Of a stretch of DNA of 64,000 nucleotides, positions 30,001 to 63,074 are shown one piece after another. The notes under the pieces were generated by a model, which saw only the letters and a list, made by a program, of their open reading frames with translations, made no database searches and was not told the origin of the DNA. The stretch comes from a virus. Taxonomy: Duplodnaviria; Heunggongvirae; Uroviricota; Caudoviricetes. A program made the position numbers and the translations under genes. How positions within the stretch are numbered: position 1 is the first letter of the stretch; each line of letters begins with the position of its first letter. The DNA lies in IMG/VR virus record IMGVR_UViG_2897328257_000003; one strand, 5' to 3'.

Positions 30001-33000
30001 NNNNNNNNNNNNNNNNNNNNNNNNNNNNNNNNNNNNNNNNNNNNNNNNNNNNNNNNNNNNNNNNNNNNNNNNNNNNNNNNNNNNNNNNNNNNNNNNNNNN
30101 NNNNNNNNNNNNNNNNNNNNNNNNNNNNNNNNNNNNNNNNNNNNNNNNNNNNNNNNNNNNNNNNNNNNNNNNNNNNNNNNNNNNNNNNNNNNNNNNNNNN
30201 NNNNNNNNNNNNNNNNNNNNNNNNNNNNNNNNNNNNNNNNNNNNNNNNNNNNNNNNNNNNNNNNNNNNNNNNNNNNNNNNNNNNNNNNNNNNNNNNNNNN
30301 NNNNNNNNNNNNNNNNNNNNNNNNNNNNNNNNNNNNNNNNNNNNNNNNNNNNNNNNNNNNNNNNNNNNNNNNNNNNNNNNNNNNNNNNNNNNNNNNNNNN
30401 NNNNNNNNNNNNNNNNNNNNNNNNNNNNNNNNNNNNNNNNNNNNNNNNNNNNNNNNNNNNNNNNNNNNNNNNNNNNNNNNNNNNNNNNNNNNNNNNNNNN
30501 NNNNNNNNNNNNNNNNNNNNNNNNNNNNNNNNNNNNNNNNNNNNNNNNNNNNNNNNNNNNNNNNNNNNNNNNNNNNNNNNNNNNNNNNNNNNNNNNNNNN
30601 NNNNNNNNNNNNNNNNNNNNNNNNNNNNNNNNNNNNNNNNNNNNNNNNNNNNNNNNNNNNNNNNNNNNNNNNNNNNNNNNNNNNNNNNNNNNNNNNNNNN
30701 NNNNNNNNNNNNNNNNNNNNNNNNNNNNNNNNNNNNNNNNNNNNNNNNNNNNNNNNNNNNNNNNNNNNNNNNNNNNNNNNNNNNNNNNNNNNNNNNNNNN
30801 NNNNNNNNNNNNNNNNNNNNNNNNNNNNNNNNNNNNNNNNNNNNNNNNNNNNNNNNNNNNNNNNNNNNNNNNNNNNNNNNNNNNNNNNNNNNNNNNNNNN
30901 NNNNNNNNNNNNNNNNNNNNNNNNNNNNNNNNNNNNNNNNNNNNNNNNNNNNNNNNNNNNNNNNNNNNNNNNNNNNNNNNNNNNNNNNNNNNNNNNNNNN
31001 NNNNNNNNNNNNNNNNNNNNNNNNNNNNNNNNNNNNNNNNNNNNNNNNNNNNNNNNNNNNNNNNNNNNNNNNNNNNNNNNNNNNNNNNNNNNNNNNNNNN
31101 NNNNNNNNNNNNNNNNNNNNNNNNNNNNNNNNNNNNNNNNNNNNNNNNNNNNNNNNNNNNNNNNNNNNNNNNNNNNNNNNNNNNNNNNNNNNNNNNNNNN
31201 NNNNNNNNNNNNNNNNNNNNNNNNNNNNNNNNNNNNNNNNNNNNNNNNNNNNNNNNNNNNNNNNNNNNNNNNNNNNNNNNNNNNNNNNNNNNNNNNNNNN
31301 NNNNNNNNNNNNNNNNNNNNNNNNNNNNNNNNNNNNNNNNNNNNNNNNNNNNNNNNNNNNNNNNNNNNNNNNNNNNNNNNNNNNNNNNNNNNNNNNNNNN
31401 NNNNNNNNNNNNNNNNNNNNNNNNNNNNNNNNNNNNNNNNNNNNNNNNNNNNNNNNNNNNNNNNNNNNNNNNNNNNNNNNNNNNNNNNNNNNNNNNNNNN
31501 NNNNNNNNNNNNNNNNNNNNNNNNNNNNNNNNNNNNNNNNNNNNNNNNNNNNNNNNNNNNNNNNNNNNNNNNNNNNNNNNNNNNNNNNNNNNNNNNNNNN
31601 NNNNNNNNNNNNNNNNNNNNNNNNNNNNNNNNNNNNNNNNNNNNNNNNNNNNNNNNNNNNNNNNNNNNNNNNNNNNNNNNNNNNNNNNNNNNNNNNNNNN
31701 NNNNNNNNNNNNNNNNNNNNNNNNNNNNNNNNNNNNNNNNNNNNNNNNNNNNNNNNNNNNNNNNNNNNNNNNNNNNNNNNNNNNNNNNNNNNNNNNNNNN
31801 NNNNNNNNNNNNNNNNNNNNNNNNNNNNNNNNNNNNNNNNNNNNNNNNNNNNNNNNNNNNNNNNNNNNNNNNNNNNNNNNNNNNNNNNNNNNNNNNNNNN
31901 NNNNNNNNNNNNNNNNNNNNNNNNNNNNNNNNNNNNNNNNNNNNNNNNNNNNNNNNNNNNNNNNNNNNNNNNNNNNNNNNNNNNNNNNNNNNNNNNNNNN
32001 NNNNNNNNNNNNNNNNNNNNNNNNNNNNNNNNNNNNNNNNNNNNNNNNNNNNNNNNNNNNNNNNNNNNNNNNNNNNNNNNNNNNNNNNNNNNNNNNNNNN
32101 NNNNNNNNNNNNNNNNNNNNNNNNNNNNNNNNNNNNNNNNNNNNNNNNNNNNNNNNNNNNNNNNNNNNNNNNNNNNNNNNNNNNNNNNNNNNNNNNNNNN
32201 NNNNNNNNNNNNNNNNNNNNNNNNNNNNNNNNNNNNNNNNNNNNNNNNNNNNNNNNNNNNNNNNNNNNNNNNNNNNNNNNNNNNNNNNNNNNNNNNNNNN
32301 NNNNNNNNNNNNNNNNNNNNNNNNNNNNNNNNNNNNNNNNNNNNNNNNNNNNNNNNNNNNNNNNNNNNNNNNNNNNNNNNNNNNNNNNNNNNNNNNNNNN
32401 NNNNNNNNNNNNNNNNNNNNNNNNNNNNNNNNNNNNNNNNNNNNNNNNNNNNNNNNNNNNNNNNNNNNNNNNNNNNNNNNNNNNNNNNNNNNNNNNNNNN
32501 NNNNNNNNNNNNNNNNNNNNNNNNNNNNNNNNNNNNNNNNNNNNNNNNNNNNNNNNNNNNNNNNNNNNNNNNNNNNNNNNNNNNNNNNNNNNNNNNNNNN
32601 NNNNNNNNNNNNNNNNNNNNNNNNNNNNNNNNNNNNNNNNNNNNNNNNNNNNNNNNNNNNNNNNNNNNNNNNNNNNNNNNNNNNNNNNNNNNNNNNNNNN
32701 NNNNNNNNNNNNNNNNNNNNNNNNNNNNNNNNNNNNNNNNNNNNNNNNNNNNNNNNNNNNNNNNNNNNNNNNNNNNNNNNNNNNNNNNNNNNNNNNNNNN
32801 NNNNNNNNNNNNNNNNNNNNNNNNNNNNNNNNNNNNNNNNNNNNNNNNNNNNNNNNNNNNNNNNNNNNNNNNNNNNNNNNNNNNNNNNNNNNNNNNNNNN
32901 NNNNNNNNNNNNNNNNNNNNNNNNNNNNNNNNNNNNNNNNNNNNNNNNNNNNNNNNNNNNNNNNNNNNNNNNNNNNNNNNNNNNNNNNNNNNNNNNNNNN

Positions 33001-46059: not shown

Positions 46060-47804
46060 AACTGGCACCGAACGTAAAAAAACAGCCACGCGGAATAAAA
46101 CACAAAGACACAGAGGTGATTATTTTCGCGGGTAGTGATGCGTGGGCACATGCAAAACAGTGGCAGGAGCAGGACGGCCCCGCATCCGGCGATAATGTGC
46201 CTCCTGTGTGGCTTGGGCCAAATCAGCTTGCCGAACTTGATGCACTGCAAATTGTTCCTGATGGAAAAAAACGCGTAAGGCTGTACCAGGCAGGAGAACT
46301 GGACTTGGTGGAGACCAAAAAGATTGGTCAGAAGCTGGCGGCGGCAGATATTCAGGACACAAATTTTTACCCCGAAGGAATGCACGCCCAGAAGTGTGAA
46401 AACTGGCGGCGCTATCTGAATGCTGAGCGTGAAAATATTGCCGCAGGGCTTACCATGCCGGAGCAGAAAAATACGCAACTGGCACAAATGGCAGACAGTG
46501 AGCGCGCCCAGCTGCTTGCTGGTCGATTTGATGGCGTTTGCGTACATCCTGAAAGTGAAATCGTTCACGTATGGCGCGGCGGGGTATGGTGTCCGGTCAG
46601 CACAATGGAACTTAGCCGCGAAATGGTGGCGATCTATTCAGAGCACAGGGCCACTTTCAGCAAGCGCGTAATCAATAACGCCGTGGAAGCGTTAAAAGTT
46701 ATTGCCGAACCAATGGGCGAGCCGTCTGGCGATTTGCTGCCGTTCGCCAATGGTGCGCTTGACCTGAAAACAGGGGAATTTTCCCCGCACACGCCGGAGA
46801 ACTGGATCACCACGCACAACGGCATTGAGTACACGCCACCAGCACCAGGGGAGAACATCCGCGATAACGCGCCAAACTTTCATAAATGGCTTGAGCACGC
46901 AGCCGGAAAAGACCCGCGCAAGATGATGCGTATATGTGCCGCGCTGTACATGATTATGGCGAACCGGTACGACTGGCAGATGTTTATTGAGGCCACCGGA
47001 GACGGCGGGAGCGGTAAAAGTACATTCACACACATAGCCAGCCTTCTGGCAGGGAAACAGAACACGGTAAGCGCTGAAATGACATCGCTTGATGATGCTG
47101 GTGGACGTGCGCAGGTTGTCGGGAGTCGTCTTATCGTCCTGGCTGACCAGCCGAAATATACAGGCGAAGGAACGGGCATCAAGAAAATCACAGGCGGCGA
47201 CCCCGTGGAAATTAACCCGAAATATGAAAAGCGTTTCACGGCGGTAATCAGGGCGGTGGTGCTGGCGACCAACAACAACCCGATGATATTCACCGAACGG
47301 GCCGGAGGTGTGGCACGTCGTCGCGTGATTTTCCGTTTCGACAATATCGTCAGTGAGGCCGAAAAAGACAGGGAGCTACCGGAAAAGATTGCGGCTGAAA
47401 TCCCCGTTATTATCCGCCGATTGCTGGCGAACTTTACCGACCCTGAGAAGGCACGGGCTTTACTACTGGAACAGCGTGACGGTGATGAAGCACTGGCAAT
47501 AAAGCAACAGACGGATCCGGTTATTGAGTTTTGCCAGTTCCTGAATTTTCTGGAGGAAGCGCGCGGCCTGATGATGGGTGGCGGTGGTGATTCAGTGAAG
47601 TACACGACCAGGAACAGCCTTTACCGCGTCTATCTGGCGTTTATGGCATACGCGGGCAGGAGCAAACCGCTAAACGTGGCTGAGTTCAGCAAGGCCATGA
47701 AGCCAGCGGCGAAAGTTTACGGGCATGAATATATTACGCGAAAAGTTAAGGGAGTAACGCAGACCAACGCAATTACAACAGACGATTGCGACGCGTTTTT
47801 ATAA
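46056..47804 (+). CDS. P4-family phage/plasmid primase / replication initiator with P-loop NTPase domain
   Basis: 582 aa; Walker A FIEATGDGGSGKST; N-terminal region (VIIFAGSDAWAHAKQWQEQDG) shared with island-2 primase, central region divergent. Confidence 0.85.
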   Translation: MKLAPNVKKQPRGIKHKDTEVIIFAGSDAWAHAKQWQEQDGPASGDNVPPVWLGPNQLAELDALQIVPDGKKRVRLYQAGELDLVETKKIGQKLAAADIQDTNFYPEGMHAQKCENWRRYLNAERENIAAGLTMPEQKNTQLAQMADSERAQLLAGRFDGVCVHPESEIVHVWRGGVWCPVSTMELSREMVAIYSEHRATFSKRVINNAVEALKVIAEPMGEPSGDLLPFANGALDLKTGEFSPHTPENWITTHNGIEYTPPAPGENIRDNAPNFHKWLEHAAGKDPRKMMRICAALYMIMANRYDWQMFIEATGDGGSGKSTFTHIASLLAGKQNTVSAEMTSLDDAGGRAQVVGSRLIVLADQPKYTGEGTGIKKITGGDPVEINPKYEKRFTAVIRAVVLATNNNPMIFTERAGGVARRRVIFRFDNIVSEAEKDRELPEKIAAEIPVIIRRLLANFTDPEKARALLLEQRDGDEALAIKQQTDPVIEFCQFLNFLEEARGLMMGGGGDSVKYTTRNSLYRVYLAFMAYAGRSKPLNVAEFSKAMKPAAKVYGHEYITRKVKGVTQTNAITTDDCDAFL

Positions 47805-48075
47805 TTTTTTGTAAAAGCCATCTACCCCATCTACCTGAACGAAATAAACGCATATTATTCAACATGATAAGTGGGTATAGGGCTAGGTAGAAGGCTAATA
47901 AAAGCTCTCTACCTCTTCTACCTGATTTTATCAGTTTCAGGTAGCAGGGTAGACGGCAGGTAGAGGAGTCAAAAAAGCTATCTACCCGCTGAAAGCGGCG
48001 CCATTACTGACATGATGAGCATTCGGGTAGATGGGTAGAGGGGGGGGAGGCACAACTAAAAACTTTTTAAACGAG
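47805..48075. repeat. Iteron array, putative island-1 replication origin
   Basis: At least 10 copies of TCTACC/GGTAGA-type motifs in both orientations (catctaccccatctacc, ggtagaagg, ctctacctcttctacc, caggtagcagggtagacggcaggtagagg, cgggtagatgggtagagg) directly after the primase gene. Confidence 0.65.
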
Positions 48076-48090
48076 GGGGGGTGAAAATAA

Positions 48091-48405
48091 ATGCGCATAC
48101 ATAAAAATCACTTAACAAACATGCCAGCCGAATACATGAATCAGGGGCGACAAATGACCCAAAAACGCAGAGACAGAACAGAGCCAAAATATAAAGCGTT
48201 AGACATGACTGAGCACACCTTAAAGGTGGCAATCAGAACGATAGACCGCCACACGCGGGAAGGATACGCGAAGGAACATCCCGACCTGATAAGCGCATTC
48301 ATGACCACGGCGGCGGCAAACTTTGCCACGCTGACAGAACGGGAGATTGCCGAAGCGGAACAGGTAACAACCATCAACGTTAAAACCGGAGAGGTGGAAT
48401 TATGA
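48091..48405 (+). CDS. Hypothetical protein conserved in both islands (upstream of ssb)
   Basis: C-terminal two-thirds nearly identical to island-2 ORF 59484-59729 (EGYAKEHPDLISAFMTTAAANFATLTEREIAEAEQVTTINVKTGE); SD gaggggggg. Confidence 0.55.
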   Translation: MRIHKNHLTNMPAEYMNQGRQMTQKRRDRTEPKYKALDMTEHTLKVAIRTIDRHTREGYAKEHPDLISAFMTTAAANFATLTEREIAEAEQVTTINVKTGEVEL

Positions 48406-48812
48406 CGGCACAGATAGCCGCTTACGGGCGGCTGGTGGACGACCCGCTGGTAAAACAGAGCAGCAAGGGCACACCGATGACTCTGGCGCGTATGGCGGTA
48501 TCGTTGCCATGCAGCCAGGCACATGACGGACAGGCGACGTTATGGTTATCGGTTATCGCATTTGGCAAACAGGCCGATTTCCTGGCTAAACATCAAAAAG
48601 GCGATGTTGCCAGCGTATCCGGCACGATGCAGGTAAGCCAGTGGACCGGACAGAACGGGGAAACACGGCAGGGGTATCAGGTTATTGCGGACAGCGTAAT
48701 CAGTGCCCGCGCGGCACGTCCTGGCGGGAACAGACGCAAAGCCACAGGCACACAGGGTAATCAGCCACCAGCGGGAGGTGATGACCCTTACGGTGATGAT
48801 ATTCCGTTCTGA
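48402..48812 (+). CDS. ssb: Single-stranded DNA-binding protein (SSB-like OB fold with C-terminal DDIPF tail)
   Basis: 136 aa; OB-fold pattern (GRLVDDP...W..V.AFGKQADFLAKH.KGD.V.V.G.....W....G) and the hallmark acidic C-terminus ...GDDIPF, as in E. coli SSB (DDDIPF). Confidence 0.75.
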   Translation: MTAQIAAYGRLVDDPLVKQSSKGTPMTLARMAVSLPCSQAHDGQATLWLSVIAFGKQADFLAKHQKGDVASVSGTMQVSQWTGQNGETRQGYQVIADSVISARAARPGGNRRKATGTQGNQPPAGGDDPYGDDIPF

Positions 48813-48822
48813 GGGGGTGACG

Positions 48823-49095
48823 ATGGCACATGACCGCATAGCGGAGGAACTCGAGGCAAAAGGCTTTTACCGGAGGGCGGCGGCGCGATGGGGTGAAGTC
48901 ATGCAACTGGTGGAGACAGACAAGGAACGGCATCAGGTTACGATGCGACGGCTGGAATGTTCCAGGAAGGCACAGAGGCCACCGGAGCCGCCGGATAACT
49001 TCGGAGACCTGAGAAAGGCAGTCGATCGCACTTATGCTGAAATGGGTATGGATGGTGTAAGCGATGAAATATGGCGTAATTACACAGACAGCTAA
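48823..49095 (+). CDS. PerC/Pch-family-like transcriptional regulator (putative)
   Basis: 90 aa from the ATG after SD gagggggtga; motif AEELEAKGFYRRAAARWGEVM resembles the conserved core of PerC-family activators. Recalled family signature, not searched. Confidence 0.5.
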   Translation: MAHDRIAEELEAKGFYRRAAARWGEVMQLVETDKERHQVTMRRLECSRKAQRPPEPPDNFGDLRKAVDRTYAEMGMDGVSDEIWRNYTDS

Positions 49096-49100
49096 TCAAC

Positions 49101-49125
49101 AGCCGGAGCAATCCGGCTTTTTGTT
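49101..49125 (+). terminator. Rho-independent terminator (agccggagcaatccggc + T-run)
   Basis: 6-bp GC-rich stem gccgga/tccggc, 4-nt loop, then TTTTT; the same hairpin recurs at 60418 and 62332. Confidence 0.6.
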
Positions 49126-49344
49126 ATTTTTTGTAAATTATTTGTTCGTGGTTGTTCCACGTTGTTCACTGAGCGGATCGGCATATTTTACCCGAACTGA
49201 ATCATGATTATTCTCGCCCGTGGTGCCAGGACGCTGGGGCCACTTTCCCGCCTGTTAATGTGCCCGCCAATATTCATTACCAGGCGGGAAAACGATCGGT
49301 GCGATTGCTGATTTCCTTATGAAAAACGGTTGAGTGTTTGCCGC

Positions 49345-56433: not shown

Positions 56434-56444
56434 NNNNNNNNNNN
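56434..56444. other. Assembly gap (11 N) between islands
   Basis: Run of n; sequence resumes at the same conserved motif that follows the 623-N gap in island 1. Confidence 0.99.
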
Positions 56445-56559
56445 TGATTATACTGGAATCCAGTTGAGTGTTTATCACTCAATGCAAACGAGGCTGAAAA
56501 GGATTGCCGTCCTTTCGCAGCCTCTGACCACCAACGATAGCGAAAGTATCGAGGTAGCT
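56445..56559 (+). promoter_or_regulatory. Conserved control region (copy 2) with palindrome TTGAGTG-N5-CACTCAA (56464-56482)
   Basis: Near-identical to 44836-44952. Confidence 0.5.
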
Positions 56560-57082: not shown

Positions 57083-57382
57083 ATGAGAACATATTTATCT
57101 GGCTTGACTGCCAGCGGTTATGCACACCCCAAAATTATCCCCGGCGCTATTTATCTGGATAAGAACGGTAACAGAGTAACGGTAAAAGAACTGATGTTTG
57201 ACCGTGTGTATTTTATCCGTGATGGCTATTCATTTCTTAGTTCGCTGAACGTGGAGATCTTTATTAGCAGATTCAGGCGGGAAATCCCGCTTTCCAGAAA
57301 TAACCATGTGTCATGTATGGATGTTGATAAAAAACTACAGGAACTAAAAAACATGATTGCCGCGTGGAGAGAGCAGAAATGA
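57083..57382 (+). CDS. Hypothetical protein with GLTASG motif (99 aa)
   Basis: Counterpart of 45760-46059; stop overlaps primase start. Confidence 0.5.
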   Translation: MRTYLSGLTASGYAHPKIIPGAIYLDKNGNRVTVKELMFDRVYFIRDGYSFLSSLNVEIFISRFRREIPLSRNNHVSCMDVDKKLQELKNMIAAWREQK

Positions 57383-59196
57383 AAAAAGCGCCAAATTTAA
57401 AACACCAGCCACGTGACAAAATGATGGAAGTCATCATTTTTGCGGGTAGTGATGCGTGGGCACATGCGAAGCAATGGCAGGAACAGGACGGGCGACTGGC
57501 TGGCGACAGCGTGCCTCCTGTCTGGCTTGGAGAGCAACAACTTGCCGAACTGGACAACCTGCAAATCGTACCGGACGGACGCTATCGCGTGCGTCTCTAT
57601 CAGGCGGGGTTATTGCGTCCGGGGCTTGTTAATACCATCGGGCAGAAACTGGCAGCGGCAGGTGTCAGGGATGCTGATTATTACCCTGAAGGAATGCACA
57701 GCCAGAAACGGGAGAACTGGCGCGAATATCTGGAACGTGAACGGGCAGAGCAGGCGGAAAAGAAAAAGGTAGTTGAACTGCCTGTAAAGAAAAAAGAGCG
57801 GGTAAAAGACGATAACGCTTCATCACTGGCGCTTAACCAGATGGGAGCAAGTCAACGCGGCGAAGTTCTCCTGGCACATTATGGCGGTGAACTGGCGATT
57901 CATGCTGACTCTGACACTGTTCACTATTACAACGGCGTTGTATGGGAGCCAGTACAGGATAAAGAATTACAGCGAGCTATGGCACAGATTTTCATTGATG
58001 CGGAGATCAGCTATTCGCAGAACGCCATTAAATCGGCGGTCGATACCATGAAGTTAAGTTTGCCTGTAATGGGGAATACAGCCCGTAACCTGATTGGATT
58101 CAGTAACGGTGTTTTTGATACCCGGACAGGCGATTTTCGGGAGCATAACAAAAACGACTGGTTGTTAATTGCCAGTGAATTACCTTTCAGCCCACCAGCA
58201 GAGGGGGAAACGCTGGCAACACATGCGCCGAATTTCTGGAAGTGGTTACGCCGTTCGGTGGCTGAGAATGACCGCAAGGCGGATCGCGTACTGGCTGCAT
58301 TATTCATGGTGCTGGCGAACCGGTACGACTGGCAGTTATTCATTGAGGTAACAGGTCCAGGGGGAAGTGGTAAAAGCGTGATGGCGGAGATTTGCACCAT
58401 GCTGGCGGGTAAGGCCAACACGGTATCGGCAAGCATGAAGGCGCTGGAAGATGCCAGGGAACGCGCGTTAGTGGTTGGCTTTTCGCTGATTATCATGCCG
58501 GATATGACCCGTTACGCTGGTGATGGCGCAGGAATTAAGGCCATTACAGGCGGTGACAAGGTGGCAATCGACCCGAAGCATAAAGCCCCCTACTCAACAC
58601 GCATTCAGGCGGTAGTGTTGGCGGTGAACAATAACGCCATGTCATTCAGTGACCGCAGCGGGGGGATTTCACGTCGTCGGGTGATATTCAATTTTTCGGA
58701 GGTTGTACCGGAAAACGAACGCGACCCCATGCTGGCAGAAAAAATAGAAGGAGAGCTGGCGGTTGTGATTCGCCACCTGCTTACTCGTTTTTCTGACCAG
58801 GACGAAGCTAAACGCCTGCTGTATGAGCAGCAGAAATCAGAAGAAGCTCTGGTGATAAAACGCGAGGGCGATTCGCTGGTGGACTTCTGCGGCTATCTCA
58901 TGTCGTCGGTAATGTGTGATGGTCTGTTAGTGGGTAATGCCGAAATTATTCCGTTCAGTCCGCGCAGGTATCTTTATCACGCCTATCTGGCATATATGAG
59001 GGCACACGGATTCGGTAAACCTGTAACACTGACGCGCTTCGGTAAAGATATGCCGGGGGCAATGGCGGAATATGGCAGGGAGTATATGAAACGGAAAACG
59101 AAGCACGGTTTGCGTTCAAATGTGACCCTGACAGAGGATTCAGAAGACTGGATGCCATCATGTGCATCGGTCACAAATGACGATGGAAAAAATTAA
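57379..59196 (+). CDS. P4-family phage/plasmid primase / replication initiator (island-2 allele)
   Basis: About 605 aa; Walker A FIEVTGPGGSGKSV; N-terminus and C-terminal domain related to island-1 primase, middle divergent; start refined to MKKAPNLK; six-frame ORF starts at 57364. Confidence 0.85.
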   Translation: MKKAPNLKHQPRDKMMEVIIFAGSDAWAHAKQWQEQDGRLAGDSVPPVWLGEQQLAELDNLQIVPDGRYRVRLYQAGLLRPGLVNTIGQKLAAAGVRDADYYPEGMHSQKRENWREYLERERAEQAEKKKVVELPVKKKERVKDDNASSLALNQMGASQRGEVLLAHYGGELAIHADSDTVHYYNGVVWEPVQDKELQRAMAQIFIDAEISYSQNAIKSAVDTMKLSLPVMGNTARNLIGFSNGVFDTRTGDFREHNKNDWLLIASELPFSPPAEGETLATHAPNFWKWLRRSVAENDRKADRVLAALFMVLANRYDWQLFIEVTGPGGSGKSVMAEICTMLAGKANTVSASMKALEDARERALVVGFSLIIMPDMTRYAGDGAGIKAITGGDKVAIDPKHKAPYSTRIQAVVLAVNNNAMSFSDRSGGISRRRVIFNFSEVVPENERDPMLAEKIEGELAVVIRHLLTRFSDQDEAKRLLYEQQKSEEALVIKREGDSLVDFCGYLMSSVMCDGLLVGNAEIIPFSPRRYLYHAYLAYMRAHGFGKPVTLTRFGKDMPGAMAEYGREYMKRKTKHGLRSNVTLTEDSEDWMPSCASVTNDDGKN

Positions 59197-59460
59197 ACTT
59201 ATGGAATAACTGTTCACCACTGTTCAGCCTGCAATAAATGTCTTTTATATCAGTATATTATAGGGTGAACAGTTATTTATGAACTGTTCACCAAACTATT
59301 CACTGTTCACCTTTTTGATTCTTTATTGAGCTTTAAGGGTGAACAGTGGTGAACAGTTGGTGAATAGTTTTTGTGAAACTGTTCACCCCTTAACATCATG
59401 AATAAAAAGGGAAAATTGCAAAAGGTGAACAGGTGAAGGGTTGAAATGCAAAAATTTTAT
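59197..59460. repeat. Iteron array, putative island-2 replication origin (GTGAACAG-type)
   Basis: At least 10 copies of TGTTCACC/GGTGAACAG in both orientations (aactgttcaccactgttcag, gggtgaacagtt, gaactgttcaccaaactattcactgttcacc, gggtgaacagtggtgaacagttggtgaatag, ggtgaacaggtgaagg) right after the primase gene. Confidence 0.65.
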
Positions 59461-59483: not shown

Positions 59484-59729
59484 GTGACAACGAAGCACGC
59501 CAAAAAACCACAATCTCACGCCCTTGATTTGACAGAACACTGGCTGAGGGTGGCGATAAAAATCATCGACCGCAACGCCGGGGAAGGATACGCGAAGGAA
59601 CATCCCGACCTGATAAGCGCATTCATGACCACAGCAGCGGCAAACTTTGCCACGCTGACAGAACGGGAGATTGCCGAAGCGGAACAGGTAACAACCATCA
59701 ACGTTAAAACCGGAGAGGGGGCAGTATGA
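59484..59729 (+). CDS. Hypothetical protein conserved in both islands (homolog of 48091-48405)
   Basis: GTG start with SD gaggt; C-terminal region near-identical to island-1 copy. Confidence 0.55.
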   Translation: MTTKHAKKPQSHALDLTEHWLRVAIKIIDRNAGEGYAKEHPDLISAFMTTAAANFATLTEREIAEAEQVTTINVKTGEGAV

Positions 59730-60136
59730 CGGCACAGATAGCCGCTTACGGGCGGCTGGTGGACGACCCGCAGGTAAAACAGACCAGCAAGGGCACACCA
59801 ATGACGCTGGCTCGTATGGCGGTATCGCTGCCATGCAGCCAGGCACAGGACGGACAGGCGACGTTATGGCTGTCGGTCATCGCATTTGGCAAACAGTCCG
59901 ACTTCCTGGCTAAACATCAAAAAGGCGACGTTGCCAGCGTATCCGGCACGATGCAGGTAAGCCAGTGGACCGGACAGAACGGGGAGACGCGTCAGGGTTA
60001 TCAGGTTATTGCAGACAGCGTAATCAGTGCCCGTGCGGCACGTCCTGGCGGGAACAGACGCAAAACCACAGGCGCACAGGGTAATCAGCCACCAGCGGGA
60101 GACGATGATCCCTACGGTGATGATATTCCGTTCTGA
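59726..60136 (+). CDS. ssb: Single-stranded DNA-binding protein (SSB-like, C-terminal DDIPF)
   Basis: Near-identical to island-1 SSB; ends ...AGDDDPYGDDIPF. Confidence 0.75.
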   Translation: MTAQIAAYGRLVDDPQVKQTSKGTPMTLARMAVSLPCSQAQDGQATLWLSVIAFGKQSDFLAKHQKGDVASVSGTMQVSQWTGQNGETRQGYQVIADSVISARAARPGGNRRKTTGAQGNQPPAGDDDPYGDDIPF

Positions 60137-60146
60137 GGGGGTGACG

Positions 60147-60395
60147 ATGGTACATGACCGCATAGCGGAAGAACTCGAAGCGAAAGGATTTTACCGGAGG
60201 GCGGCGGCGCGATGGGGTGAAGTCATGATGCTGGTGGAGACAGACAAGGAACGGCATCACATCACGATGCGACGGCTGGAATGTTCCAGGAAGGCACAGA
60301 GGCCACCGGAGCCGCCAACGGAGAACTATGCAGACCTGAGAAATGCAGTAAATCGCACTTACGCAGACATGGGGCTGAGCAAATTAGCAGAGTAG
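60147..60395 (+). CDS. PerC/Pch-family-like transcriptional regulator (putative)
   Basis: 82 aa; AEELEAKGFYRRAAARWGEVM core shared with island-1 copy. Confidence 0.5.
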   Translation: MVHDRIAEELEAKGFYRRAAARWGEVMMLVETDKERHHITMRRLECSRKAQRPPEPPTENYADLRNAVNRTYADMGLSKLAE

Positions 60396-60416: not shown

Positions 60417-60490
60417 CAGCCGGAGCAATCCGGCTTTTTTGCGCCCAAAAAAAGCCCGATAAGGTCAGAGGTGGCTTATCGGGCTTTTGC
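60417..60490 (+). terminator. Tandem rho-independent terminators
   Basis: agccggagcaatccggc + T6, then aagcccgataag-N11-cttatcgggctt + TTTT (12-bp stem). Confidence 0.65.
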
Positions 60491-60649: not shown

Positions 60650-60856
60650 ATGGCTGAAGAGAAAAAAGGCGGTGTTTCGGTGTACATAAGCCCCGACATC
60701 GTGAAGGCGCTCAAGGAACGCCACCAGCAGAACGTAAAAGCAGGCATTGCGGCAGGACTTGATCCGCTGGCGATGGTTGAGCCGTCAACAGGCTGGCAGG
60801 TACGCGCCTATTTACGCGCGGCGCTGGGTATGAATCAGGTTCACGGGGGTGAATAA
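60650..60856 (+). CDS. Hypothetical 68-aa protein upstream of the gpE-like capsid gene
   Basis: SD aaagagg; stop overlaps the capsid gene start; no recognisable family. Confidence 0.45.
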   Translation: MAEEKKGGVSVYISPDIVKALKERHQQNVKAGIAAGLDPLAMVEPSTGWQVRAYLRAALGMNQVHGGE

Positions 60857-61911
60857 TGACAGGTAAAGCAACAGCACTTACCACTAATCAGCTTTTCACG
60901 TACCTGAATCGCGGGGATATTGCGGAATTTAAATTCAGTCCGCTGTTTACGACGCTGTTTTTCCCGAACGTGGCGACATTCAGCACCCAAAACATCATGC
61001 TGGATACCCTGGACATTGAAGAAGTCACCATGTCGGCGTTTTGTTCGCCTATGGTTGGCAGCCAGGTACAGCGCGATAAAGGGTACGAAACCAGCACAAT
61101 TAAACCTGGCTACATGAAGCCAAAGCACGAAATCGATCCAACGAAAACCATCATGCGCATGGCTGGAGAAGATCCAGCACAGCTTAACGACCCTACCTAC
61201 CGACGTATGCGCCTGATTACTGGCAACATGCGCCGCCAGGTAAACGCCATTAAAGCGCGCGTGGAATGGCTGGCGGTGAATGCGATAACGACCGGAAAAA
61301 ACATTATTGAGGGCGAAGGCATAGAACGCTATGAAATAGACTGGAAAATACCGGAAAACTGCATCATAGAGCAGGCCAAGGGTAAAAAATGGTCCGAGCA
61401 GGATAAAGAGATGCACGACCCAATCTATGACATCGAGCTTTATGCTGATCAGGCTGGTTGCCCCGCAAACGTCATGATTATGGGCGCTGAGGTATGGCGC
61501 ACGCTACGCAGCTTTAAAAAATTCCGTGAGCTGTACGATCTTTCCCGTGGTTCAGAATCCGCCGCAGAACTGGCCTGTAAAAACCTGGGCGAAGTGGTGA
61601 GCTTTAAAGGCTATCTGGGCGATATTGCCCTTATCGTCTATTCCGGCAAATACGCTGACAGCGACGGCACCGAAAAATATTTCCTTGAGCCTGATTTACT
61701 GGTCCTGGGTAACACCAACAATAAAGGCCTGGTGGCCTATGGTGCGATTATGGATCAGGAAGCGGTAAGAACGGGCGCAACGCAAAACATGTACTACCCG
61801 AAAAACTGGATTGAGGACGGCGATCCGGCGATTGAGTACGTGCAGACACACAGCGCACCGCAGCCGGTACCGGCAGATATTCGCAAATTTGTTACCGTCA
61901 AAATTGGTTAA
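60856..61911 (+). CDS. Major capsid protein, lambda gpE-like
   Basis: 351 aa; colinear similarity to lambda gpE as remembered (island KFSPLFTTLFF / PGYMKPKHEI / YPKNWIEDGDPA versus lambda KFDPLFLRLFF / PGYVKPKHEV / YPKNWVTTGDPA). Confidence 0.85.
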   Translation: MTGKATALTTNQLFTYLNRGDIAEFKFSPLFTTLFFPNVATFSTQNIMLDTLDIEEVTMSAFCSPMVGSQVQRDKGYETSTIKPGYMKPKHEIDPTKTIMRMAGEDPAQLNDPTYRRMRLITGNMRRQVNAIKARVEWLAVNAITTGKNIIEGEGIERYEIDWKIPENCIIEQAKGKKWSEQDKEMHDPIYDIELYADQAGCPANVMIMGAEVWRTLRSFKKFRELYDLSRGSESAAELACKNLGEVVSFKGYLGDIALIVYSGKYADSDGTEKYFLEPDLLVLGNTNNKGLVAYGAIMDQEAVRTGATQNMYYPKNWIEDGDPAIEYVQTHSAPQPVPADIRKFVTVKIG

Positions 61912-61922
61912 CGGGGGATTCT

Positions 61923-62258
61923 ATGGACACTCCATACATTGAGTTATTCGCAGGCAGTCAGCAGGTCGCCACGACGCTGGTACATTTTGCCGCTGATGCT
62001 GGCGTTATTCAGGAATTTACCCCGCTGATGCTGGCGGACAATGGCGAGTTTAAGCCGTGGGATGGTCAGGAATCTGGCAAGGCTGTTTATCTGACTTCGT
62101 ACCCCGTGGACACGTCGACGCAGAAATCAGCACAGTGTTACAAGACGGGGATATTTAATATCGCTGCCGTAAACTGGCCTGAGAGCGCCGACACTGACGC
62201 GAAAAAATGCGCTGCCTTTGCGGGGTCTGGCGTATCCGTTCAGCCGCTGGCGCGATAA
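61923..62258 (+). CDS. Head decoration protein, lambda gpD-like
   Basis: 111 aa; similar to lambda gpD as remembered (island FTPLMLADNGEFKPWDG...YKTGIFN...NWPESADTDAKKCAAFAGSGVSV versus lambda MTPLMLDTSSRKLVAWDG...YKSGTFR...[24 protein letters not shown]). Confidence 0.8.
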   Translation: MDTPYIELFAGSQQVATTLVHFAADAGVIQEFTPLMLADNGEFKPWDGQESGKAVYLTSYPVDTSTQKSAQCYKTGIFNIAAVNWPESADTDAKKCAAFAGSGVSVQPLAR

Positions 62259-62330
62259 GCAGGGGGAACGATGGCAGAACCCCGGGCGATGACGGCGACA
62301 TCGATCGCATACTGAAAACCATCTGAGACA

Positions 62331-62355
62331 GGCCGGAGAAATCCGGCTTTTTTTA
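62331..62355 (+). terminator. Rho-independent terminator (ggccggagaaatccggc + T7) just before cos
   Basis: Third copy of the gccgga/tccggc hairpin, followed by ttttttt. Confidence 0.6.
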
Positions 62356-62356
62356 C

Positions 62357-62430
62357 GGGTCCTTTCCGGCATATGGACCCGTTACGGGGCGGCGACCTCG
62401 CGGATTTTCGCTATTTATGAGCCTTTTCGG
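62357..62430 (+). promoter_or_regulatory. Lambda-type cos site 1 (cosQ-cosN conserved; predicted 12-nt cohesive end GGGCGGCGACCT at 62387-62398; divergent cosB)
   Basis: acgggtcctttccgg...gttacg|gggcggcgacctcgcggattttcgctatttatga matches the lambda right-end/left-end junction as remembered; downstream cosB region differs from lambda. Confidence 0.75.
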
Positions 62431-62531
62431 GTTTGTGGTGGTGGTTTTGTTGTTCGCTCTATCTCTATGAATAAAAAGGGAAAGATAAAACCAACACACC
62501 AACCTGAAACCTTAACTAAGTGGGTATATTG

Positions 62532-63074
62532 ATGAAATCGCACCTGATGAACAAAAAAAACATGGCGAAAAGCTGCCGTGTAAGTGCGACAGCGTTCGAC
62601 AAGTGGGGAGTGACACCCGTTGAACGTAAAGGCCGTGAGGCGTTTTATGATGTTGCCAGCGTGATAGACAATAGGGTTAACAATGCAATTAGCCAGCTTA
62701 CAAACGACAAAGTCGAGATTGATGATGATGAACTCTTACGAGTCAGGATCAGATTACTGACAGCACAGGCGGAGGCGCAGGAACTTAAAAACGAGCGCGA
62801 TCGCGGTGACGTGATTGATACAGAGTTTTGCATGTACGCGCTTTCAAAACTGGCAAGTCAGATTTCTTCAATCATGGACAGCCTCCCGCTTACTATGCAA
62901 AGGAACTTCCCACAGATGCCCCCCGCTATGCTGCATGGGCTTAAGAGGGAAGTAGTTAAAGCCTGTAATGCCAGTGCCAGAGTTGCCGACAACCTCCCAC
63001 AGATACTTGCTGATTACCTGAACGAAACAACCGGAAACGTACCGGAAAAGTTGCTACAGAAGAAAGGCGAGTAA
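62532..63074 (+). CDS. Terminase small subunit, lambda Nu1-like (divergent N-terminal DNA-binding region, conserved C-terminal region)
   Basis: About 180 aa; C-terminal half resembles lambda Nu1 (LTAQAEAQELKNERDRGDVIDTEFCMYALSKLASQISSIMDSLPLTMQRNFPQ); N-terminal HTH region divergent; lies directly downstream of cos1 as in lambda. Start could be 62520, 62532 or 62547. Confidence 0.78.
   Translation: MKSHLMNKKNMAKSCRVSATAFDKWGVTPVERKGREAFYDVASVIDNRVNNAISQLTNDKVEIDDDELLRVRIRLLTAQAEAQELKNERDRGDVIDTEFCMYALSKLASQISSIMDSLPLTMQRNFPQMPPAMLHGLKREVVKACNASARVADNLPQILADYLNETTGNVPEKLLQKKGE

Follow-up and report, generated by a model that had tools for sequence, protein, structure and literature searches.

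The operon considered here has already been described and annotated, namely as ECs_1586-ECs_1587-pchE of Sakai Sp7, an element recorded in the Sakai annotation as "prophage Sp7; untypable" between roxA and phoQ. The genes of Sp7 follow the order integrase, primase, ECs_1586 (hypothetical), ECs_1587 (SSB), ECs_1588 (pchE), and then HK97-type head and terminase genes. This layout matches that of EcCIEDL933, the prototype capsid-forming PICI (bioRxiv 2022.09.08.507074), which carries a PerC-like gene as well, according to Pick et al. (PMC11773190). In Gram-negative PICIs, SSB, Primase and DUF5906 are assigned to the "Replication" category and colocalise with mapped origins (PMC10111431). Andreozzi and Uhlich mapped the transcription start site (TSS) of pchE to a G located 10 nt upstream of ECs1586, and they found pchE to be polycistronic with ECs1586 and ECs1587 (PMC7369912). 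The pchE promoter is on in uninduced cells (PMC7369912; PMC6265319), and the SOS inducer SMX-TM lowered its activity about 3-fold as measured with a lacZ fusion and 6-7-fold as measured by qRT-PCR (PMC6265319; PMC7369912). For a protein whose task would be confined to induced replication, a transcript that is present without induction and lowered by SOS is unexpected. Overexpression of PchE increased the expression of fliC (20-fold), flhDC (>2-fold) and ler (2.1-fold), and it decreased that of csgD (3-6-fold), stpA (2.5-fold), eae (2.7-fold) and also csgA (PMC7369912; PMC6265319). [quoted passage not shown]

The expression of ler and espA requires solely the group-1 Pch proteins (PchA, PchB and PchC), and those of groups 2 and 3 (PchD and PchE) are not required (PMC6265319). 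Group-1 Pch proteins relieve the silencing imposed by H-NS/StpA/Hha and activate LEE1 by relieving H-NS silencing (PMC4764244); the PchE group does not activate LEE1 (PMC6265319; PMC11773190). Pick et al. report, with reference to Porter 2005, that LEE1-lacZ is unaffected by the genes for PerC-like proteins in EcCIEDL933 and EcCICFT073 (PMC11773190). The PerC-family gene of another E. coli PICI, EcCIMP1_025, represses LEE1 in C. rodentium, and its product is reported to be about 40% identical to the PerC-like proteins of EcCIEDL933 and EcCICFT073 (PMC11773190).

Two satellite islands with a shared three-gene operon

The analyzed stretch of DNA (the window) comprises 64,000 nt, of which positions 1-36269, 43242-43252, 44213-44835 and 56434-56444 are runs of N, and its readable part (36270-64000) is E. 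coli DNA. The chromosomal genes potB, potA, pepT and roxA are followed by a tyrosine integrase gene (41912-43162) and a satellite. The integrase/satellite stretch is 99.4% identical to the corresponding DNA of strain OkiPb01697, which has a capsid-forming PICI inserted between roxA and phoQ. As hallmarks of a PICI we took an integrase, an AlpA-type regulator, a pri-rep gene with an adjacent iteron origin, and a phage-like packaging module, without lysis or tail genes. The first island (island 1), which occupies the roxA/phoQ site and extends to about 56.0 kb, contains the integrase, an AlpA-like HTH gene (in a region 99.4% identical to locus L003), the pri-rep gene with its iteron origin, and a packaging set composed of HK97-type capsid, protease, portal, connectors, HNH, TerS and TerL; it thus corresponds to a Gram-negative, capsid-forming PICI. 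The second island (island 2) is entered part-way, directly 3' of the 11-N run at 56434-56444, and what the window holds of it is an Icd-like region, a primase, iterons, a lambda-E-like capsid, a decoration protein and TerS, its int/alpA end falling outside the window. The same repeat follows two of the N runs (bases from 44836 and from 56445), and the N runs thus resemble scaffold gaps placed at the boundaries of repeats. The physical adjacency of islands 1 and 2 is therefore uncertain and may be a scaffold join. A scan of positions 36270-64000 against Rfam gave no family above threshold.

In both islands the gap between the primase gene and the operon is filled with short repeats in both orientations, the arrangement known from PICIs, which carry an iteron-type origin 3' of pri-rep (PMC6092414; PMC10111431). 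The iteron sequence differs between the islands, in step with their diverged primases. The gene matching the island 1 primase is annotated in homologous islands as 'DNA primase family protein', and PGAP annotates all three genes of the operon there, the two distal ones under the names "single-stranded DNA-binding protein" and "PerC family transcriptional regulator". The operon, which adjoins the origin downstream of pri-rep in both islands, was presented in the initial annotation as a conserved pair of ssb and a PerC-like regulator carried by both satellites. The segment 48402-49095 was indeed found to consist of exactly these two genes, both with significant profile matches, and the second copies were confirmed in island 2. 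However, the operon is composed of three genes and not of two, since a further gene upstream of ssb, encoding a protein of family phrog_1231, had been missed in both islands, and PerC is absent from many similar islands. The coordinates of all features are collected in the table.

Table. Features of the operon and its surroundings in islands 1 and 2 (window coordinates)
Feature	Position	Strand	Basis
Island 1 primase/replicase (Pri-Rep)	46056..47804	+	Pfam D5_N + DUF5906 + Pox_D5
Island 1 replication-origin iterons, ATCTACC on one side and GGTAGA on the other	47812..48049	.	Repeat families D1-D3, I1-I17; alignment
Island 1 phrog_1231 protein, 83 aa, orthologue of Sakai ECs_1586	48154..48405	+	PHROG E 3.3e-53; 75/83 identical
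Island 1 SSB, 136 aa, OB fold, short linker and GDDIPF tip	48402..48812	+	Pfam; 131/136 identical to ECs_1587
Island 1 PchE-type PerC, 90 aa, orthologue of ECs_1588 pchE	48823..49095	+	Pfam 150 bits; 85/90 identical to PchE
Intrinsic-terminator-like hairpin AGCCGGAGCAATCCGGCT and T-run at the operon end	49101..49128	+	24-nt stretch identical in island 2
Island 2 primase/replicase, diverged from that of island 1	57364..59196	+	Pfam, alignment
Island 2 replication-origin iterons CTGTTCACC / GGTGAACAG, at least 10 copies	59205..59443	.	Repeat search
Island 2 phrog_1231 protein, 81 aa, GTG start	59484..59729	+	PHROG E 1.1e-49
Island 2 SSB, 136 aa, GDDIPF tip	59726..60136	+	Pfam; 129/136 identical to copy 1
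Island 2 PchE-type PerC, 82 aa, other C-terminal tail (…MGLSKLAE)	60147..60395	+	Pfam 122 bits; 80% to PchE
Island 2 copy of the hairpin	60418..60445	+	Sequence

The start of the first gene of island 1 was set following the example of Sakai, where the TSS has been mapped (PMC7369912); a longer ORF (48091-48405) is an over-extended call that was ruled out by the positions of Shine-Dalgarno (SD) sequences and by the same TSS. The mapped leader of 675-680 nt between the TSS and pchE (PMC7369912) agrees with the lengths of the genes in the window. An AF2 model of the phrog_1231 protein reached a pLDDT of 68.7, and its structural matches were generic helical hairpins only. The stop codon of this gene and the start codon of ssb overlap as ATGA, and the two genes are translationally coupled. 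The stop codon of ssb is separated from the start of perC by 10 nt, and in island 1 the SD sequence GGGGGTG lies 5 nt upstream of perC. A longer ORF covering PerC (48703-49095) was likewise discarded as over-extended, based on SD positions and on the profile match, which spans the entire PF06069 model (1-90 of 90) with the 90-residue protein. The SD sequences, the coupled starts and the intact ORFs are kept in both copies. The hairpin proper occupies 49101-49118 and 60418-60435, and it begins 6 nt past the perC stop codon in island 1. A scan of the plus strand of both islands for the sigma-70 consensus found none upstream of the operon and none between the terminator and the capsid gene; the placement of the promoter therefore rests on the published Sakai TSS.

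Compared with Sakai Sp7, island 1 shares the roxA/phoQ site and the order of pri-rep, iteron origin, hypothetical gene, ssb, perC and HK97-type capsid module, and the three proteins of the operon are 90%, 96% and 94% identical to their Sakai counterparts. The two elements differ in the iteron sequence, in the primase gene (2133 nt in Sakai versus 582 aa in island 1), in a 75-aa ORF (ECs_1589) that is present only in Sakai between pchE and the capsid gene, and in the tip of the SSB (DGIPF in Sakai versus DDIPF in the window). Within the window, the segments 48225-49046 and 59549-60373 align over 825 bp at 92.2% identity, whereas the flanking primase genes are 68-78% identical in patches only, which indicates that the two copies are true homologues and not a product of chance. 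In a further island (L006) the operon adjoins a different replicase, an AAA ATPase. These comparisons indicate that the unit moves as a cassette among PICIs with differing replicases, iterons and packaging modules.

The SSB and the PerC-family protein

Both copies of the SSB matched profile PF00436 with 58.7 and 60.0 bits (cut-off of 26; E about 1e-16), while the score against TIGR00621 was just under its cut-off (53.0 versus 53.95), and a sequence search of the PDB matched SSB chains down to E 1.4e-9. The satellite protein shares with E. coli SSB the OB-fold domain and an acidic tip, and BLASTP aligned its residues W48, F54 and W81 with W54, F60 and W88 of the E. coli protein. On the other hand, the two are only 26% identical, the E. 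coli protein is longer (178 versus 136 aa), the linker in the window SSB is much shorter, and W40 and the tetramer residue H55 of E. coli SSB are replaced by C37 and L49, respectively. The DDIPF tail described in the initial annotation is present, as both copies terminate in ...PYGDDIPF. More generally, 107 full-length homologues were tallied, of which 102 have a tail ending in IPF, and the linker varies, giving proteins of 136-149 aa. The dN/dS ratio was 0.05-0.11 at a dS of 0.22-0.27. The SSB is under strong purifying selection, and the copies are old and constrained. A scan of genome contigs with exact peptide patterns, which yielded 6 loci and hence samples the taxonomic breadth thinly, located an SSB of the same family after the primase in Edwardsiella and Scandinavium and near an integrase in Serratia. 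Taken together, its position, conservation and family make the SSB most likely a member of the satellite replication module, as judged from sequence.

The PerC copies matched PF06069 (PerC) with 150 and 122 bits, far above the cut-off of 22.6 (E 2e-44 and 1e-35), so the family assignments of the initial annotation for both ssb and perC are correct. Sakai PchE is 94% and 80% identical to the PerC proteins of islands 1 and 2, respectively, versus 42% and 45% for Sakai PchA and 37% and 35% for Sakai PchD. These far lower values for PchA and PchD place both copies in group 3 (the PchE type), and they speak against a close relationship with the LEE-activating PchA/B/C of group 1, with which identity is in the range of 40-45% (to PchA). 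Assignment of the island 2 protein to the PchD type was ruled out by its 35% identity. The ssb-linked synteny on a PICI agrees with the PchE subgroup, though the tail of the island 2 protein is divergent. With PchA/B/C of EHEC and PerC of EPEC the window proteins have in common the Pfam family, the N-terminal helical motif and a central PPxxP segment. They differ from PchA in being 14-22 aa shorter and in having no counterpart of its basic C-terminal extension. The genomic settings differ as well, since pchA lies among the lysis genes (endolysin, endopeptidase) of the lambdoid prophage Sp4, whereas the perC of the window is located on a satellite beside ssb. With EcCIMP1_025 they share, besides the PICI location, a similarity to the ANR family, noted for that protein by Pick et al. 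(PMC11773190), which is weak in the window proteins and amounts to a resemblance only (NF033650: 18.0 and 20.5 bits versus a cut-off of 32). A sequence search of the PDB with PerC returned nothing under E 0.2. The dN/dS ratio of PerC was 0.26-0.46, calculated from few sites.

The SSB was found in 1783 of the 5426 complete E. coli genomes (33%), at 2325 places, and PerC of the PchE type in 936 of them (17%), at 1078 places. Islands carrying the hypothetical gene and ssb without perC are common (e.g. L002, L013 and L014), and therefore the tight pair is formed by these two genes, with perC as an optional third one. In addition, one island (L003) carries a truncated PerC, and in a Shigella island PerC is joined to an SSB stub (the altered cases being L003 and L012). 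The PerC family as a whole is small, with 99 clusters at 50% identity among 1.84 billion representatives, and among deposited phages it is nearly absent, with 2 of 50,697 genomes carrying it.

Possible functions of the operon

We hypothesize, with a probability of about 70%, that the operon is a known type of PICI accessory unit in which the SSB serves replication and the PchE-type PerC is an optional modulator of the host. The satellite SSB would coat the single-stranded DNA produced by the island's own primase-helicase at its origin, and its D-x-IPF tip would link it to the network of host SSB partners (Pol III chi, PriA and others). The PchE-type PerC is predicted to be an all-helical, TPR/ANR-like module for protein-protein interactions with no recognisable DNA-binding fold, and it probably disturbs silencing by nucleoid proteins (H-NS/StpA type), as do the group-1 Pch proteins. 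Its target set would differ from that of group 1, with motility increased and curli decreased. The protein is best regarded as an optional, moron-like factor that modulates the host, and not as an activator of LEE.

The latter role had been proposed in the initial annotation, by analogy with known PerC-family activators of virulence regulons, and this functional suggestion is weak. A classical virulence activator of ler/LEE, such as PerC of EPEC or PchA/B/C of EHEC, would fit the clear membership in the Pfam family, the N-terminal motif LExKGxYRRAAxRWxxVM that the window PerC shares with PchA, and the 2.1-fold rise of ler upon pchE overexpression (PMC7369912). Nevertheless, we regard this role as decidedly unlikely, given that both copies are much closer to PchE than to PchA, that PchE-type genes are dispensable for ler and espA (PMC6265319) and, according to Pick et al., inert on LEE1-lacZ (PMC11773190), that the gene of EcCIMP1 acts on LEE1 as a repressor (PMC11773190), and that eae fell upon overexpression of pchE (PMC7369912). 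That perC immediately precedes the packaging module in both types of island could instead suggest a late regulator of the satellite, one that switches on or de-silences the capsid/packaging operon, which begins about 250 nt downstream, or one that acts on late promoters of the helper. The 'transcriptional activator' label of PHROG relatives of PerC is in line with this, as is the missing sigma-70 consensus in front of the capsid gene, which implies a need for an activator or for read-through. However, a conserved terminator lies between perC and the packaging genes, the near-identical islands L002, L013 and L014 have the same packaging module but no perC, other islands carry it in the truncated or fused form mentioned above, and the operon promoter is repressed, not induced, under SOS, that is, under helper-inducing conditions (PMC6265319; PMC7369912). 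Furthermore, the induction of PICIs has been ascribed to AlpA (bioRxiv 2022.09.08.507074). The intervening terminator, the absence of perC from similar islands and the down-regulation on induction make activation of the packaging operon less likely, and the drop of expression on SOS induction together with the dispensability of PerC in many islands does the same for helper late promoters; on balance, we consider a late regulatory role unlikely.

As for the SSB, it might be a constitutive decoy or interference protein, whose tip titrates SSB-binding proteins, as the initial annotation had imagined for host or helper partners, or which itself coats helper or incoming DNA; the outcome would be interference with the helper or a blunting of host defences that sense SSB or single-stranded DNA. 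The preserved IPF tip on a linker of variable length is compatible with such a function, the diverged OB domain (with the equivalents of W40 and H55 lost) makes mixed tetramers or altered DNA binding conceivable, and the transcript is present in uninduced cells (PMC7369912). This last point is a caveat on the replication reading and would also be compatible with a role as decoy or in interference. Yet none of the three proteins of the operon matched the PADLOC defence models, the gene resides in the replication module beside the origin in several genera, and our literature search found neither functional data for the SSB in phage satellites nor an experimental hint of such interference, so we attach a low likelihood to it. 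It is very improbable that the three genes are decaying cargo, functionless at present. Only the variable presence of PerC and its truncation or fusion in some islands point in that direction, and they are outweighed by the SSB omega of 0.05-0.11 at dS >0.2, by the intact ORFs, SD sequences and coupled starts in both copies, and by the retention of the cassette across different island backbones and in a third of E. coli genomes.

A more speculative reading is that of a life-cycle switch with the operon promoter at the edge of the origin, in which the island's own Rep/primase, binding to the terminal iterons on induction, would stop the production of SSB and of PchE, the latter acting as an anti-silencing-type modulator through protein-protein contacts. 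The last two ATAACCCGCA iterons of Sakai are located 23-40 nt upstream of the mapped TSS (the G at position 31093 of locus L004), over the expected -35 region. In island 2 some 30-40 nt separate the last iteron from the presumed start downstream of it, and in island 1 the gap between the iterons and the start is larger (about 100 nt). Binding of Rep to the iterons as the cause of the published SOS repression is speculation on our part, and the iterons of the origin and the published repression of pchE have seemingly not been connected before. The switch as a whole, including a resident satellite that would keep its host motile and low in curli and release it on leaving, appears doubtful, though not negligible.

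There is little novelty in the genes themselves, which are annotated by pipelines, with pchE named and studied and the SSB already placed in the PICI replication module. What is added here is the recognition of a three-gene unit, bounded by the origin and a conserved terminator, that behaves as a mobile cassette with PerC as its dispensable member. If the switch proved true, a resident, silent satellite would set the motility and curli production of its host through PchE and would free the host from this control when leaving.

Iterons and the operon downstream

Between the primase/replicase gene (pri-rep) and the operon formed by the phrog_1231 gene, ssb and the PchE-type perC, each of the two phage satellites in the window carries its own iteron set (see table), whereas the Sp7 locus of E. 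coli O157:H7 Sakai (L004) has a third, ATAACCCGCA. In the islands compared, a diverged primase goes together with a diverged iteron type, while the cassette located 3' of them is still about 92% identical. The published transcription start of the Sakai hyp-ssb-pchE transcript is a G at L004 31093, and two direct iterons lie over the expected -35 region just 5' of it (L004 31052-31105). The reported SOS repression of pchE may be tied to binding of Rep at these iterons.

Features of the two islands and of related loci
Feature	Location	Remarks
Island 1 iterons	window 47812-48049	ATCTACC/GGTAGA; between pri-rep and operon
Island 2 iterons	window 59205-59443	CTGTTCACC/GGTGAACAG; between pri-rep and operon
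Island 2 lambda-E-like major capsid gene, decoration protein and TerS	window 60650-63074	
PerC-N-terminus-like ORF	L008 5817-5945	Scandinavium sp.; 44-50% identity over about 40 aa
ssb-perC deletion fusion	L012 6001-6180	Shigella flexneri SFBU1023; otherwise island-1-like cf-PICI
TIR-domain protein	L014 570-1445 and 9020-9781 (jointly with next row)	E. coli KE47 PICI; adjoins AlpA-like gene
Abortive-infection family protein	L014, as in preceding row	E. coli KE47; far end of PICI

Variation and distribution of the cassette

The IPF of the SSB tip is almost invariant among the family members compared (P0262-P0381), and the residue preceding it varies: the window has DDIPF, Sakai (L004 31351-31761) and strain 7_26_9A have DGIPF, and DNIPF was found in 25 of the 107 homologues. 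In the S. flexneri fusion, a deletion fuses ssb codons 1-25 with roughly the final 30 codons of perC, and the primase of this cf-PICI is 98% identical to that of island 1. Directly 5' of SSB, the Scandinavium locus carries the PerC-N-terminus-like ORF, in the place that the phrog_1231 gene has in the E. coli islands. Genes of the PerC family are frequent on PICIs and plasmids (107 plasmid records) but nearly missing among the phage genomes on deposit, where a search of the phage collection found them in 2 of 50,697 records; Sakai pchA, by contrast, is located within the lysis genes of the lambdoid prophage Sp4.

Assembly gaps and island neighbourhood

More than half of the window consists of N (runs at 1-36269, 43242-43252, 44213-44835 and 56434-56444). 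Since the same repeat (TGATTATACTGGAATCCAGTTGAG...) resumes after two of these runs, at 44836 and at 56445, the gaps look, from the sequence, like scaffold joins placed at repeats common to both islands. Because island 2 lacks its int/alpA end, the two islands may not truly lie side by side. A separate 171-kb record, CP061267.1 (L006), is listed as plasmid pSTEC1024_3; it contains phoQ/phoP, and its roxA/phoQ site is occupied by a PICI, so it is probably a misassigned chromosomal fragment.

Cargo and packaging

The TIR-domain and abortive-infection proteins of the related KE47 PICI look like defence cargo carried by its variable zones. No portal, protease or TerL gene was seen in the visible part of island 2. 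The same ssb-perC cassette precedes differing packaging strategies in islands 1 and 2.
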